Assembly: GCA_944358625.1 (NCBI GenBank)
Contig: CALVRL010000002.1
Location: forward strand, 1 to 45,801
Source: an uncultured Bacilli bacterium
GTDB lineage: Bacteria > Bacillota_I > Bacilli_A > RF39 > UBA660
Reading direction: 5' to 3'
Length of the DNA: 45,801 bases
Position numbers and translations under genes: made by a program. Of the stretch, positions 14,484 to 19,270 are shown piece after piece (position 1 is the first letter of the stretch; every line of letters begins with the position of its first letter). The notes below the pieces were generated by a model, which saw only the letters and a program-made list of their open reading frames with translations, was not told the origin of the DNA and did not search any database.

Positions 14484-14760
14484 TTGTATTTTTTTATTTT
14501 TTTGATTTTTGAATTTGTTATTTTATGTACTTTTAACACCATTTTAGCTTTGTTTTATAAAGGTAAAATCAATTTTATTTATTTTTTTTTATTTTTTTAT
14601 TTTTTTGTTTTTTTCGTTTTTTTTGTTTTTTTATTTTTTATAATTTTTGATTTTTTTGATTTTTTTATTTTTATGTGTTTTAGAATATCAAAAGGTAAAA
14701 TGTTCGCTTTTTATGTATATTTTGTACAAACATTTCATATAATTTTTTGGGTGGTTTTCG

Positions 14761-15972
14761 ATGAAGAAAATATTAATTTTATTAATTTGTATTTTATTAA
14801 TGGGGTGTGAAGATAAAAAGAGTCTTGTAAGTTATATTAATCAAGACGAAGCTCTTATATCTATTAGTTATCCTATTACTAACATCAATGTTTTAGATGA
14901 TAAAATTACTGGGTATGTTAATCAAACTTATAGTGAATTTAAAAATATGGTCTCCAGCAATATTCCTGAACTTAATATTTCCTATACTTATAAAGAGGTC
15001 AATACCGATATTGTTAGTGTTAGTTTGCAAACTGAAATTATAACTGACAAAAGAGTTAATAAAATTAAAACTTTTACTTATAATAAATCTAATGATAAAT
15101 TTTTAACCATGGAAGATATTGTCGGTGATTTAGATGCTTTAGACTATGATATTAAAAAAGAACTTCTTATTAAATACCAAGATGCGGATATGGATTATTT
15201 AAGTAATATTAGTTATGATTATTTTACTGTAGATGATGAAAATTTAACCATCTATTTTAACCCGACTGAAATTAAAAGTAATTATGATAATTTGATATAT
15301 TTAGATATTCCTTTGAATAGTATGGACTTACTTATAGATGTTGATAAAAGTGAGGAAGAAAAGACTTACTTATCTATAAAGAAGAAAAACGTATCTTTAG
15401 ATGATAAGGTGGTGGCTTTAACTTTTGATGATGGTCCTAGTAAATATACTAATAAAATTTTAGATGTTTTGAAAAAATATGATGCTTGTGGGACTTTCTT
15501 CGTGGTTGGTAATAGGGTGAATTTTTATAAAGAGCAGTTAAAGAGAACTTTGAATGAGGGTAGTGAAATTGGAAATCATTCTTATGATCATAAACTTTTA
15601 ACTAGACTTTCTAAAGAGGAATTTCAAAGTGAGGTTAATAAAACGCAGGAGCAAATTGTAAAAGCTACTGGTTTTACTCCTACTTTGTTTAGACCTACTT
15701 ATGGGGGATATACTAATACTTTAAAGGGCTATACGGATTTGACTTTTGTTCTTTGGGATGTAGATTCTAGAGATTGGCAGGTTAAATCCAAAGATAAAAT
15801 TTTGAAAAATGTTTTACCTAATGTCAAAAGTGGTAGTATTATTTTAATGCATGATGGCCTTCCTTATGGTTTAAATGCTTTAGAGGATGTTTTAAGTGAT
15901 TTAAAAAATAAAGGTTATAAATTTGTTACTGTTAGTGAACTTTTAGAACTTAAAAAGTTAAGGGAAAGCTGA
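14761..15972 (+). CDS. polysaccharide/peptidoglycan deacetylase lipoprotein (PdaC-like: N-terminal DUF3298-like domain plus NodB domain)
   Basis: 403-aa ORF with lipoprotein signal MKKILILLICILLMGC. The C-terminal NodB motifs are VALTFDDGPS, GNHSYDH and LMHD. Confidence 0.8.
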   Translation: MKKILILLICILLMGCEDKKSLVSYINQDEALISISYPITNINVLDDKITGYVNQTYSEFKNMVSSNIPELNISYTYKEVNTDIVSVSLQTEIITDKRVNKIKTFTYNKSNDKFLTMEDIVGDLDALDYDIKKELLIKYQDADMDYLSNISYDYFTVDDENLTIYFNPTEIKSNYDNLIYLDIPLNSMDLLIDVDKSEEEKTYLSIKKKNVSLDDKVVALTFDDGPSKYTNKILDVLKKYDACGTFFVVGNRVNFYKEQLKRTLNEGSEIGNHSYDHKLLTRLSKEEFQSEVNKTQEQIVKATGFTPTLFRPTYGGYTNTLKGYTDLTFVLWDVDSRDWQVKSKDKILKNVLPNVKSGSIILMHDGLPYGLNALEDVLSDLKNKGYKFVTVSELLELKKLRES

Positions 15973-16355
15973 TGACTAATTATAATTTAGAAGAAGAAAG
16001 ACTTGTAGAAATTCAAATTGTTTTATCTACTATTTTACTTTTTTGTACTATTATTTCTATTTTTCTATCTTATAATTTTCTTTTGTCTTTGAAAAATGAA
16101 AAAACTATTTATAGTGATGAAGATAGCTATAATATTTTAATTTTTAATAGAACTGTTATGTTTATAGTGGCTTTAATTTTTATTTTAATTAATCTAAAAG
16201 ATAAATGTGTAAAGGAAAAATATGGTATAAAAGATGATTTTGCAGATTTACAAATATTAGCTAGTATTTTTAACTTTATAGCTACTTTTATTGTTTTATA
16301 TGTTGGTATTAATTCTTCTATTAATATAACTAGTGAAGAAAATCCTACTATTTAG
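15972..16355 (+). CDS. small membrane protein, unknown function
   Basis: 127-aa ORF whose ATG overlaps the upstream stop (TGATG). It has three predicted TM helices. No family recognised. Confidence 0.5.
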   Translation: MTNYNLEEERLVEIQIVLSTILLFCTIISIFLSYNFLLSLKNEKTIYSDEDSYNILIFNRTVMFIVALIFILINLKDKCVKEKYGIKDDFADLQILASIFNFIATFIVLYVGINSSINITSEENPTI

Positions 16356-16408: not shown

Positions 16409-17962
16409 CTATTTGGCTTCTTCTGTTACTCTTGTTTCTCTAATTACAACTACTTTAATTGTTCCTGGATATTGGAGAGTTTCTTCTATTTTATTTTTAA
16501 TTTCTCTTGCTATCTTGTGGCTTTCTAAATCATCTATTTCTTCTGGTTTAACAATTACTCTAAGTTCCCTACCAGCTCCGACTGCAAATGTTTTTTCGAC
16601 TCCTTCCATATCATCTCCGATTTGTTCTAATTCTGTTAGTCTTTTGATATAGTTTTCTAATGAATCATTTCTAGCTCCTGGTCTAGAGGCTGATATGGCA
16701 TCAGCTATTGCTACTAGGGTACTGATAACGCTTGTTGCTTCTTTATCTCCATGATGTGATTCAATAGCATTAATAACTGTTTCATTTTCACCATATTTTT
16801 TAGCTAGGTTAGCTCCTATTTCAACGTGGCTTCCTTCTATTTCATGGTCTATAGCTTTACCTATATCGTGCAAAAGTCCTGCTCTTTTAGCTAGGGTTAT
16901 GTTTTCCCCTAATTCACCAGCTAAAAGTCCTGCTAAATTGGCTACTTCTATAGAATGTTTTAATGCATTTTGTCCATAACTTGTTCTAAATTGTAATTTT
17001 CCTATTGTTTCTACTAACTCTGGCTCCATTTTAGTAATTCCAAGTTCAAATAAGGCGTTGTTTCCAATTTCAATTAAATTTGCTTTCATTTCTTTTAATG
17101 TTTTATCATAGACTTCTTCTATACGACTTGGATGGATTCTTCCATCTTTAATTAGTGTTTCTAAAGTTAGTCTTGCTATTTCTCTCCTATAAGGATCAAA
17201 ACTTGATAAAACTATTGCTTCTGGAGTATCATCGATAATTAAATCTACTCCTGTTACAGCTTCTAATGTTCTGATGTTTCTACCTTCTCTACCAATGATT
17301 CTTCCTTTCATATCATCGTTTGGTAAAGTAACTACAGTTACTGTTTGCTCACCAGCAATGTCGGCGGCATATCTTTGCATTGTTCCAACTAACATTTCTT
17401 TTGAATTTTTATCTGCTTGTAGTTTTGCTTCGGCTTCACGGTCTTTAATGTATGAAGCAATTTCTAAATTCATCATGTCTTCTACTTTTTTCATAATTTG
17501 TTCTTTAGCTTGTTTTTTGGTATAACCAGCTATTTTTTCTAGTTGTTTTAATTGTTCGTTTTTTGTCTCTTCTAACTCCATTTGCTTTTCTTGTAGTTCT
17601 TTTTGCATAAGTATTAAATTATTTTCTTTGTCTTCTAACATTTGTTCACGATTTTGAAGATTTTGGTCTCTACGATCCACACTCTCTTCACGGGCTAAAA
17701 GACGTTCTTCGGAGTCTTTAATTTCTTGTTTTTTTTCTTTTGTTTCTTTTTCTAACTCATTTTTTAATCTATGGTTTTCTTCTTTAGCTTCTAAAATGCT
17801 ATCTCTTTTTAATTTATCTGCTTCTTTTTTTTTTTTTTTAATTAAATTTTGTACTTTTTTTGAAGCGTTCATTAATTTAATAGAATTTAAAATTATCATA
17901 AAGATAATACCAACAAAAAGACCAATTAGGATTAGCAATATGGAGAAAACAATATTATTCAT
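16409..17962 (-). CDS. rny: ribonuclease Y
   Basis: 517-aa ORF with an N-terminal TM, a K/E-rich coiled coil, a KH domain ([12 protein letters not shown]) and an HD domain (LLHDIGKA...ESHHGD). Confidence 0.95.
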
Positions 17963-18092
17963 ATTTTAACCTCCATATGGGATTTCATCCCTAAATATAT
18001 TGTAATGGGAATATGTGAAGAAGTCAAGTAAAATAATTTGTGTGTTTTATACACCACTTGCTTTAAATTTAATTTTATGTTATAGTGTATAT

Positions 18093-18219
18093 AGATGAGA
18101 AGTTTCTCATATAATAAAAAGGGAACATTCAGTTTTCCATGTTGAATGTCTAACTAATAGTTGGCCTATGGGCACTTATTCGAAGACACTTATTCTAATG
18201 AATGAGTGTCACTTTTTTA
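18093..18219 (+). ncRNA. candidate antitoxin sRNA 1 (convergent with toxin-1 mRNA); ends approximate
   Basis: Promoter TTGCTT (18058-18063), 17-nt spacer, TATAGT (18081-18086). It has a 5' hairpin ATGAGAAGTTTCTCAT and an internal hairpin CATTCAGTTTTCCATGTTGAATG. The terminator is an 11-bp stem (18185-18195 with 18200-18210) followed by T6. Its 3' end overlaps the stop codon of the minus-strand peptide ORF. Confidence 0.55.
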
Positions 18220-18301
18220 TAACAATTATTAAAAAAATAATTAGAAATAAAATGATAGAAACGAGTTTTAAAAACTTTATTATAAAAGTCTTTAAAGTCA
18301 T
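18209..18301 (-). CDS. candidate type I toxin peptide 1 (30 aa, single TM)
   Basis: AGGAGG (18316-18311) plus 9 nt precedes the ATG at 18301. It reads MTLKTFIIKFLKLVSIILFLIIFLIIVIKK then TGA. The promoter is TTGTAT (18393-18388), 17 nt, TATAAT (18370-18365). It is below the ORF-track size cutoff. Confidence 0.6.
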   Translation of the reverse strand: MTLKTFIIKFLKLVSIILFLIIFLIIVIKK

Positions 18302-18466
18302 TTTATCAAACCTCCTCTCTATAAGAGATTTGGTAGACACTCAAAACTGATATTCCCTATTTAAATTATATAATATAACTATTAGTTATACAAGAGAATG
18401 TTTTATAATTTTATTATTTGTAAAATTTAATTTGAAAATAACTTAATTTTATGTTATAGTGTATAT

Positions 18467-18582
18467 AGATGAGGAGTTTCTCATATAATAAAAAGGGAAT
18501 ACTTAACAACCCAAAGTTGAGTACTTGCCAATATTGGTTCGCACTTAATCTACGGAATGTAAATTGAGTGCTTTTTCTTTTT
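18467..18582 (+). ncRNA. candidate antitoxin sRNA 2; ends approximate
   Basis: Promoter TTGAAA (18432-18437), 17-nt spacer, TATAGT (18455-18460). It has the same 5' hairpin as sRNA 1 (ATGAGGAGTTTCTCAT). The terminator stem GCACTTAAT/ATTGAGTGC (18541-18571) is followed by TTTTTCTTTTT. The RNA ends about 9 nt before the toxin-2 stop codon. Confidence 0.55.
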
Positions 18583-18590
18583 ATAATTCA

Positions 18591-18665
18591 TTATTTAAAT
18601 AATAAAATTATAAGTAGAAGGATGATAATGATTAAAGAAGAAATTAAAATATCTTTTTTAGTCAT
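18591..18665 (-). CDS. candidate type I toxin peptide 2 (24 aa, single TM)
   Basis: GGAGG (18677-18673) plus 7 nt precedes the ATG at 18665. It reads MTKKDILISSLIIIILLLIILLFK then TAA. An anti-SD hairpin CCTCC-GAAA-GGAGG (18686-18673) occludes the SD. The promoter is TTGTAT (18748-18743), 17 nt, TATAAT (18725-18720). Confidence 0.6.
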   Translation of the reverse strand: MTKKDILISSLIIIILLLIILLFK

Positions 18666-18768
18666 TTCACCACCTCCTTTCGGAGGCAAACACTCAACTG
18701 TTAAATATTCCCCATTTAAATTATATAATATAACTATTAGTTATACAAGCGAACATTTTAAAATTTAA

Positions 18769-18799
18769 CAAAAAAGGCCTTATGTTTTTATATAAGGTC
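18769..18799 (-). terminator. intrinsic terminator of greA
   Basis: The minus strand reads GACCTTATATAAAAACATAAGGCC followed by TTTTTTG, immediately after the greA stop codon. Confidence 0.65.
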
Positions 18800-19270
18800 T
18801 TAATTAATTGCTAATACTTTTACTTGATATTCACCATTTGGACTAGTTACAGTTGCAATATCGCCAACTTTAGCTCCCATTATTGCTTTCGCAATTGGTG
18901 ATTCATTAGAAATTTTATTAGTGAAAGGATCTGCCTCTTTGATACCAACGATAGTATACGTATCCTTGTCATCTTCACCAACATATTCTAATTCAACAGT
19001 ATTACCAACTGAAACTTTATCGGTTTTAACGTTCTTAATAACGATTGCTTTTTCAATTTGTTTTTCTAATGTAGCAATACGATTTTCTGTTTCTGATTGT
19101 TCATTTCTAGCTGCATCGTATTCGGCATTTTCGCTTAAATCGCCTAAGGCTCTGGCTTCTTTTAAAGCTTCAATAACTGCCGGTCTTTTTTCCATTTTTA
19201 GATATTCTAATTCTTTTTTCATGTCTTCTAAACCTTGTTCAGTTACGTAAACTTCATCTGTATTTGTCAT
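18800..19270 (-). CDS. greA: transcription elongation factor GreA
   Basis: 156-aa ORF with the N-terminal coiled-coil motif ...AREAGDLSENAEYDAA (here ARALGDLSENAEYDAARNEQ) and a C-terminal FKBP-like domain. Confidence 0.95.
   Translation of the reverse strand: MTNTDEVYVTEQGLEDMKKELEYLKMEKRPAVIEALKEARALGDLSENAEYDAARNEQSETENRIATLEKQIEKAIVIKNVKTDKVSVGNTVELEYVGEDDKDTYTIVGIKEADPFTNKISNESPIAKAIMGAKVGDIATVTSPNGEYQVKVLAIN

Follow-up and report, generated by a model that had tools for sequence, protein, structure and literature searches.

Two tandem candidate type I toxin–antitoxin modules of bsrG/SR4-like layout between rny and greA in an uncultured Bacilli bacterium

Introduction

What is encoded in the spacer between rny, the gene for RNase Y, and greA in an uncultured Bacilli bacterium, where two similar units of DNA follow one another within 837 bp? 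The stretch analysed here, called the window throughout, comprises 45,801 nucleotides (nt) of contig CALVRL010000002.1 (assembly GCA_944358625.1; GTDB lineage Bacteria; Bacillota_I; Bacilli_A; RF39; UBA660) and has a GC content of 27%. An earlier note, made from the letters of the window alone, had proposed that the spacer holds two tandem modules resembling type I toxin–antitoxin systems, and the computational analysis that followed it up leads to a similar answer: the spacer probably contains two paralogous type I toxin–antitoxin modules of a previously undescribed family, with a layout like that of bsrG/SR4.

The T1TAdb database holds 24 type I families, and the toxin mRNAs of this class are recognized by a sequestered Shine–Dalgarno sequence (SD) and/or a long-distance interaction between their 5’ and 3’ ends (PMC8594479). 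As read from the sequence of the modules, the traits of the class occur together: a small (under 60 amino acids, aa) hydrophobic peptide of the membrane type encoded on a short mRNA, a cis antisense RNA that appears to have its own promoter and terminator, and a toxin mRNA in which the SD is sequestered and/or the two ends interact. The genomes nearest to the window are metagenome-assembled genomes (MAGs) of uncultured Bacilli and ‘Firmicutes bacterium CAG:822’, with complete chromosomes of 1.3-1.5 Mb; a GreA protein identical to that of the window is found on many gut metagenome contigs, and the RNase Y of Candidatus Onthousia is 65% identical to that of the window.

Architecture of the two modules

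All the elements described in the earlier note for two tandem modules between rny and greA were found in the sequence (Table 1). In each module, a tiny hydrophobic open reading frame (ORF; 71-73% hydrophobic residues) on the minus strand is preceded by GGAGG and by a TTGTAT-17-TATAAT promoter motif, as direct reading confirms, while the leaders, previously put at ~45 nt, measure ~57 nt in module 1 and ~48 nt in module 2, with 7-9 nt between GGAGG and ATG. The proposed plus-strand promoters, 5’ hairpins and terminators are likewise supported by motifs, the promoter and terminator scan, folds, and covariation in 60 modules. The small RNAs (sRNAs) that they would delimit, expected at ~115-130 nt and convergent on the mRNA 3’ end, come to ~126 and ~116 nt, with 113 and 103 nt of predicted complementarity. 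The final codons and the stop codon of toxin-1 fall within the sRNA-1 terminator, and sRNA-2 ends ~9 nt short of the toxin-2 stop codon, thus overlapping the 3’ untranslated region only. When the intergenic DNA of the whole window was scanned for hydrophobic ORFs preceded by an SD, the toxin-1 and toxin-2 ORFs were the only ones recovered.

The two modules (18058-18431 and 18432-18790) are 67% identical overall, in a mosaic pattern: the blocks that carry the promoters and RNA 5’ ends are 87-97% identical and the interiors 53-70%. Conserved ends with diverged interiors mark the modules as old paralogues whose ends have been homogenized or are strongly constrained, and the mosaic suggests an origin by gene conversion or by an exchange of cassettes at the conserved blocks. 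The sRNA-1 promoter sits in the direct repeat D2, which is 97% identical to its copy in module 2, and the 36-nt cores of D1 and D2 have no further site in the window (0 expected by chance). The 374-bp unit goes unreported by Tandem Repeats Finder on account of the low identity (53-70%) of the interiors. Neither terminal inverted repeats nor target duplications were seen in the repeat analysis of the spacer. At L087, one of the loci collected for comparison, the DNA between the tandem copies is near-identical too. Just past the greA stop codon (18771-18799, minus strand) there is a weak terminator (-6 kcal/mol, one mismatch, U6, z = -1.6).

A family of related modules

Related modules occur in more than 100 gut metagenome contigs and in genomes of relatives (uncultured Bacilli and CAG:822-like bacteria). 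The pattern used for the metagenome scan, which joined the mRNA U tract to the sRNA 5’ region and thus targeted the sRNA side, matched at least 120 stretches, with a median GC content of 27% among the matches listed. From the stretches listed, 130 modules were extracted, of which 82 are non-identical and intact and 60 lie below 90% identity to one another. A profile of the sRNA matches sRNA-1 over 18095-18218 (nhmmer, E = 2.6e-13) and sRNA-2 over 18469-18580 (E = 4.2e-18), and hidden Markov models (HMMs) of the peptides match toxin-1 (model B, E = 2.4e-10) and toxin-2 (model A, E = 4.5e-9).

The models A and B reflect two peptide subfamilies. Subfamily A, to which module 2 belongs, follows the pattern M-[TNSKH]-K-K-D-[FLI]-L-I... 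in 24-29 aa, and subfamily B, with module 1, follows M-K-[TK]-[KR]-T-F-I-I-K-V-L...V-I-K-K in 30 aa. Module 1 still aligns with A-type modules over 344 nt at 68% identity (E = 3e-19), from which it follows that both subfamilies share one ancestral cassette. The peptides have a hydrophobic stretch of 19-22 residues with basic flanks, resembling a membrane anchor. Of the lysines to which the earlier note had drawn attention at both ends, those of the basic N-terminus are kept in both subfamilies (M-x-K-K-D in A), while the lysine-rich C-terminus does not hold as a family feature, since family members end in K, KK, Q, N or I.

The reading frames bear the marks of genes. In three length-matched groups, the differences between family members at codon positions 1/2/3 are 0.38/0.16/0.45, 0.34/0.20/0.45 and 0.38/0.12/0.51, and the synonymous share of single-nucleotide codon differences is 54-77%, against ~22% expected under uniform mutation, an over-representation of synonymous changes of 2.5-3.5 times. 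This substitution pattern marks the peptides as subject to purifying selection. Although nucleotide identity is below 70%, 90 of 116 modules retain an in-frame ORF together with its SD. The long plus-strand ORFs of the spacer (60 and 66 aa) are unconserved: the longest ATG-initiated ORF has a median of 34 aa across the family and reaches at least 60 aa in 3 of 60 modules. The coding signal on one strand, together with the lack of conserved ORFs on the other, indicates that the peptides are real genes and that the larger ORFs of the spacer are artefacts, as had been supposed.

Structure of the plus-strand RNAs

Both sRNAs fold more stably than their shuffled sequences (z = -4.05 for sRNA-1 and -3.82 for sRNA-2). 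In an alignment of 60 sRNA sequences (A1), the consensus structure computed with RNAalifold comprises an internal hairpin and the terminator, with compensatory changes in 14 of 20 pairs. Across the 60 modules, 95.3% of the alignment cells in these hairpins are paired, against 31-37% when the partners are slid, and covariation scores 0.52, compared with a maximum of 0.13 in controls, values that 0 of 500 shuffles reached. A 5’-end hairpin of at least 4 bp is present in all 60 sRNAs.

Any hairpin on one strand has a counterpart on the other, and the direction of the signal is hence of interest. The two sRNA hairpins are stabler on the sRNA strand than as the complement in 54/60 and 49/60 modules (p = 5e-11 and 7e-8), owing to G-U pairs, and this strand-specific stability indicates selection on a plus-strand transcript. 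It was also considered whether the hairpin that precedes the U tract in the mRNA is the mere complement of sRNA hairpin 2; it is much weaker on the mRNA strand (-4.2 kcal/mol, against -7.8 kcal/mol for sRNA hairpin 2), and the weakness of this local hairpin favours a long-range helix there.

Structure of the toxin mRNAs

The mRNAs were folded from their predicted start to the U run that adjoins the sRNA 5’ end. The minimum free energy (MFE) folds of the toxin-1 and toxin-2 mRNAs have z = -6.32 and -7.18; in both, the SD lies in a local hairpin and the first ~30 nt are paired with the last ~35 nt. In the MFE folds of all 60 family members, 10 or more pairs (median 26) link the first 49 nt to the last 75 nt, and in 42 of 59 modules at least 75% of the SD is paired. 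The duplex between the 5’ and 3’ ends averages -32.3 kcal/mol for cognate, -23.7 for non-cognate and -13.5 for shuffled ends, and joining the 5’ 50 nt to the remaining mRNA contributes a further -21.5 kcal/mol on average.

The long-range helix, called P1, was also assessed in an alignment of both mRNA ends (A2), where it is 89.6% paired against 34-50% when slid, with compensatory changes in 17 of 26 pairs and a covariation score of 0.42 against at most 0.13. In silico, the 5’-3’ helix P1 of the mRNA is thus established by covariation. The resemblance of the sRNA 5’ part to the mRNA leader (inverted repeat I6) arises because both pair with the same 3’ segment of the mRNA.

Pairing of the RNAs and proposed mechanism

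The cognate sRNA–mRNA duplexes extend over 113 bp (-193 kcal/mol) and 103 bp (-170 kcal/mol), and cross pairs between the two modules of the window reach -56 kcal/mol, so that the RNAs of the two modules are predicted not to cross-pair strongly. Pairing of the Fst type, 5’ end to 5’ end, was considered and rejected, because the sRNA 5’ part and the mRNA 5’ part give -8.8 kcal/mol, against -9.3 ± 2.8 for shuffled sequences. When the mRNA 3’ region is blocked in silico, the accessibility of the SD does not change (0.29 against 0.30), which favours antisense-triggered decay over a translational block.

The following course of events is proposed. A promoter of the constitutive type would give a toxin mRNA of ~230-250 nt, which the P1 helix and the SD hairpin would render stable but poorly translated. 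A converging promoter with an extended -10 element would produce an antisense RNA of ~116-126 nt, in which a 5’ hairpin with a protective role is followed by an internal hairpin and the intrinsic terminator. Over 103-113 nt, this RNA should pair without mismatch with the mRNA 3’ end, in a stretch that takes in the 3’ arm of P1. If bsrG/SR4 and txpA/RatA are a guide, pairing probably begins at complementary loops and extends into a long duplex, which RNase III would cut, leading to decay of the toxin mRNA. When the antisense RNA drops, the stable mRNA would be translated into a single-helix membrane peptide of 24-30 aa with a basic N-terminus, which presumably damages the membrane and stops growth.

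Alleles, genomic sites and orphan antitoxin genes

Of ten contigs from the species of the window, both modules are present on seven (spacer of 837-841 bp) and only the greA-proximal one on three (463-467 bp), and the toxin-2 peptide is identical in all ten. Compared with the spacer of the window, two of the shorter spacers (467 bp at L001 and 463 bp at L004) lack exactly 374 bp, 18101-18474. The one- and two-module alleles fit unequal recombination between the conserved blocks, which might have acted as gain or as loss. Further afield, the modules were compared by blastn with the rny loci of 80 related genomes: L015 and L016, from related species, have one A-type module at the same site, orthologous to toxin-2, and the more distant L087 and L088 (RNase Y 62-63% identical) have tandem arrays that lie downstream of rny and are oppositely oriented, with the SD and start codon gone from the first copy of L088. 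At L023 (2675-2738), in a related MAG, the greA–rny spacer keeps ~60 nt, with the sRNA promoter and 5’ end, which resembles a deletion scar.

The placement of the modules on the core chromosome, as given in the earlier note, holds. Family members lie at many unrelated chromosomal sites, one to four per locus, and most of them adjoin housekeeping genes, such as those for alanine racemase, a DnaB-type replication protein, topoisomerase I, MurG, an ABC-F ATPase, and CotJB, while a few adjoin a serine recombinase or a Fic protein. At L101 (3592-4059), the adjoining gene encodes a homologue of the spore coat protein CotJB, a neighbour that hints that some carriers of the family may form spores.

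The sRNA profile and peptide HMMs were run on 1.7 Mb of collected DNA. Outside the ten same-species contigs, 142 sRNA genes were found, 116 of them with room for a toxin gene, and the latter is intact in 90 and not intact in 26 (~22%). In the 26 defective toxin genes, the promoter, SD or start codon is missing, a stop codon is present, or only the last codons are left. Conversely, no convincing intact toxin ORF without an sRNA was found among the collected loci by the profile and HMM search. This asymmetry is suggestive, being what selection against unguarded toxins would produce. Orphan antitoxin loci with an intact sRNA include one recurrent locus (L095, L114, L118, L133, L160, L175 and L183) and also L100, L123, L140, L159/L193/L207, L166, L178, L198 and the first copy of L088; the toxin gene of L140 has TAA at codon 4.

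Database searches

The peptides belong to none of the toxin families that could be searched, in line with the impression recorded in the earlier note. No toxin model of Pfam or NCBIfam was found for ten family peptides at E up to 10, at which only chance matches to unrelated membrane proteins appeared. None of the same ten peptides, both peptides of the window included, was found by exact look-up in a collection of 15 billion proteins, which suggests that gene callers miss them. Rfam gave no match at gathering score in the whole window, and between 17900 and 18850, at E up to 10, only chance-level matches to unrelated families. The two-module region had no blastn match in phage or plasmid records, nor did the peptides by tblastn in phage (including Bacillus phages) or plasmid records, a search in which the low-complexity filter may mask matches. 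Scans of viral contigs gave 0 matches and 1 chance match (L091, which is without a module). Neither the peptide motifs nor the family were found in the literature searched.

Weighing the interpretations

Several points weigh against the type I interpretation. The promoters, RNA ends, toxicity and neutralization are all predicted, the part assigned to RNase III is drawn by analogy, and homology of the peptides to a proven toxin could not be detected. The -35 boxes TTGTAT (both toxin mRNAs) and TTGCTT (sRNA-1) match the consensus at 3/6 positions only, which is also why these promoters are not listed by a generic scan; the weakness of the greA terminator means that read-through may contribute to toxin-2 transcripts; and the count of toxin losses is suggestive rather than decisive, because the loci were collected via the sRNA side.

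The peptides could instead be ordinary, non-toxic small membrane proteins, such as accessory subunits or stress peptides, that are tuned by a cis-antisense RNA. Coding selection and antisense structure are equally compatible with this explanation, and so is the fact that the peptides lack homology to proven toxins and are toxic by presumption only. Housekeeping small proteins, however, are normally single-copy at a fixed site, whereas these modules are multi-copy, tandem, dispersed and strain-variable; in ~22% of the modules the sRNA remains although the peptide gene is gone, and the heavy double lock on translation, by SD hairpin and 5’-3’ helix, is a recognition signature of type I systems (PMC8594479). 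Non-toxic proteins are hence an unlikely explanation. Export of the peptides as signalling or antimicrobial molecules (bacteriocin- or pheromone-like) under antisense control would agree with their being short, hydrophobic, cationic and strain-variable, but it is very unlikely: no leader or cleavage motif was observed, the neighbours are housekeeping genes rather than transporter, immunity or modification genes, and the hydrophobic stretch of 19-22 residues with basic flanks looks like a membrane anchor.

Two other explanations dispense with the toxin peptide or with its antisense RNA. Units that are repeated, dispersed, edged by highly conserved blocks and gained or lost whole could be non-coding intergenic elements, structured repeats or miniature mobile elements whose ORFs arose by accident in AT-rich DNA. 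The conservation of ORF, SD and frame in 90/116 modules, the third-position variation and synonymous excess, the two peptide subfamilies with conserved motifs, and the lack of terminal inverted repeats or target duplications all speak against such elements, which makes this, too, a highly improbable account. The earlier note had itself said that its proposal would fall if the plus-strand RNAs were leaders of a downstream gene. The RNAs are structured and end in terminators, as leaders or riboswitch-like elements might, but no plus-strand gene follows either of them, greA and the U32 peptidase genes being on the minus strand; moreover, they have no Rfam match and stand in unrelated contexts in other genomes, and the chance that they are leaders is close to negligible. 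The type I interpretation held in each prediction at the sequence level that could be checked, and no rival explains the data as well.

Neighbouring features and coordinates

Some features of the surrounding DNA were also recorded. An intergenic, T-rich tract of low complexity (~100 nt, 14572-14681, from Tandem Repeats Finder), in which the T runs are split by a single A or G, lies upstream of a polysaccharide deacetylase lipoprotein gene (14761-15972). The stop codon of this gene is overlapped by one base by the ATG (15972-15974) of a 127-aa ORF (15972-16355) with several predicted membrane spans, for which there is no Pfam match on same-species contigs. Inside rny, a homopolymer of ~15 T on the plus strand (~17825-17840) encodes KKKKK after the membrane anchor, and is a long, slippage-prone run for a core gene. 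The coordinates of the modules and their flanking genes are given in Table 1.

Table 1. Positions in the window of the two modules, their predicted parts and the flanking genes.
Feature	Position	Strand	Details
rny (RNase Y)	16409-17962	-	ORF list
sRNA-1 predicted promoter	18058..18086	+	-35 TTGCTT (18058-18063), 17-nt spacer, extended -10 TGTTATAGT ending 18086
Direct repeat D2	18066-18125 / 18440-18499		97% identical, spacing 374
sRNA-1, predicted antitoxin RNA	18093..18218	+	~126 nt; predicted start and end
sRNA-1 hairpins	5’ 18095-18110; internal ~18125-18150; terminator 18185-18210; U run 18212-18218	+	Terminator from scan
374-bp unit missing from single-module alleles	18101..18474	.	Junction inside D2; spacer alignment
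Toxin-1 mRNA	18112..18358	-	~247 nt; predicted ends
Toxin-1 mRNA ends	5’ ~7 nt past -10 box; 3’ in U run (plus-strand AAAAA 18116-18120)		Predicted
Toxin-1 mRNA helix P1	5’ arm ~18357-18330; 3’ arm ~18157-18121	-	Fold
Toxin-1 ORF, subfamily B	18209..18301	-	30 aa, MTLKTFIIKFLKLVSIILFLIIFLIIVIKK; ORF list; stop codon 18209-18211
Toxin-1 mRNA SD/anti-SD hairpin	~18331-18305	-	Fold; CUCU...GAGAGGAGG
Toxin-1 SD GGAGG	18315-18311	-
Direct repeat D1	18350-18411 / 18705-18766		92% identical, spacing 355; 36-nt core identical
Toxin-1 mRNA predicted promoter	18365..18393	-	-35 TTGTAT (18393-18388), 17-nt spacer, -10 TATAAT (18370-18365); in D1
sRNA-2 predicted promoter	18432..18460	+	TTGAAA, 17-nt spacer, TATAGT with TG extension; scan 10/12 matches
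sRNA-2, predicted antitoxin RNA	18467..18582	+	~116 nt
sRNA-2 hairpins	5’ 18469-18484; internal; terminator ~18540-18572; U run to ~18582	+
Toxin-2 mRNA	18487..18713	-	~227 nt; predicted ends; 5’-3’ long-range helix, SD sequestered
Toxin-2 ORF, subfamily A	18591..18665	-	24 aa, MTKKDILISSLIIIILLLIILLFK; ORF list
Toxin-2 SD GGAGG	18677-18673	-	Within CCUCC-GAAA-GGAGG hairpin
Toxin-2 mRNA predicted promoter	18720..18748	-	TTGTAT (18748-18743), 17-nt spacer, TATAAT (18725-18720); D1 copy
greA	18800-19270	-	ORF list

Significance

The type I families catalogued so far come nearly all from cultured Proteobacteria and Bacillota, while the family described here, from an uncultured gut lineage, abounds in never-cultivated bacteria that are common in the guts of humans and animals. 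It represents a new family of a well-known kind rather than a new principle, and it illustrates that such cassettes are recognizable from sequence alone. It provides at least 60 naturally occurring versions of an RNA switch resembling that of bsrG, with covariation data built in, and offers new small peptides, presumably membrane-active, as well as a strain-variable marker for a poorly known gut lineage. A broader view, in which the modules form a lineage-wide type I superfamily specific to uncultured, small-genome, low-GC gut Bacilli, with one conserved RNA scaffold of promoter blocks, 5’-3’ helix and antisense RNA, interchangeable A and B toxins, and cassettes that are gained, lost and exchanged among chromosomal sites by recombination at the near-identical promoter blocks, is conceivable but doubtful; if true, it would imply strain-level differences in toxin repertoire that may be relevant to phage defence or to competition between gut strains.

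Comparison with known type I systems

In Gram-negative bacteria, the hok/Sok and aapA1/IsoA1 systems also rely on a 5’-3’ long-distance interaction, which holds the full-length toxin mRNA inert (PMC3834814, PMC8594479). The modules of the window share such an interaction in the mRNA, but in these two systems the antisense RNA acts against the 5’ part or the ORF of the mRNA and the mRNA is activated by trimming of its 3’ end, while here the antisense RNA is directed against the 3’ end.

Among Gram-positive systems, Fst/RNAII (par of pAD1) and SprA1/SprA1as have a toxin of ~30 aa, convergent transcription and an antisense RNA on the 3’ side (PMC8594479), three traits that are predicted for the modules too. 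Fst-type pairing proceeds via 5’ repeats outside the overlap, whereas the modules have no such complementarity; their peptides also differ in that they match no Fst toxin model and have no conserved proline in the helix.

The txpA/RatA system, from the skin element of Bacillus subtilis, resembles the modules in its 3’-end overlap and convergent antisense RNA. It differs in that TxpA, at 59 aa, is much longer and unrelated in sequence, in that the modules have no Rfam or Pfam match, and in that the site in the window lies outside a mobile element. The toxin mRNA of txpA/RatA decays in an RNase III-dependent manner, and the same mode would be expected here (PMC3531473, PMC8594479).

The closest likeness is to bsrG/SR4, which belongs to the BsrE/G/H group and is carried by the SPbeta prophage of B. 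subtilis. In the bsrG mRNA, nt 1-35 pair with nt 232-262 to form helix P1 and the SD lies in a 4-bp helix, while SR4, whose complementarity to the 3’ end takes in the 3’ arm of P1, triggers RNase III-dependent decay and lengthens this 4-bp helix to 8 bp (PMC3834814). The convergent arrangement with an antisense RNA against the 3’ part of the toxin mRNA, the P1 helix, the SD in a short helix, the antisense cover of the 3’ arm of P1, and a small, hydrophobic toxin with one basic end all recur in the modules, and the 3’-overlap layout of txpA/RatA and bsrG/SR4 that had been proposed for them is borne out, the P1 helix of the bsrG mRNA (PMC3834814) being a further shared trait. There are differences as well: no similarity of peptide or RNA sequence can be detected; the peptides have 24-30 aa rather than 38 aa and the sRNAs ~120 nt rather than ~180 nt; the U tract follows directly on the 3’ arm of P1, whereas in bsrG a separate terminator hairpin comes after that arm; the site is on the core chromosome rather than in a prophage; and no change at the SD is predicted on sRNA binding, whereas SR4 extends the SD helix. 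By toxin homology, the modules would therefore not be counted as members of the BsrE/G/H group, but in their predicted layout they share its 3’ overlap, its P1 helix and its SD helix.

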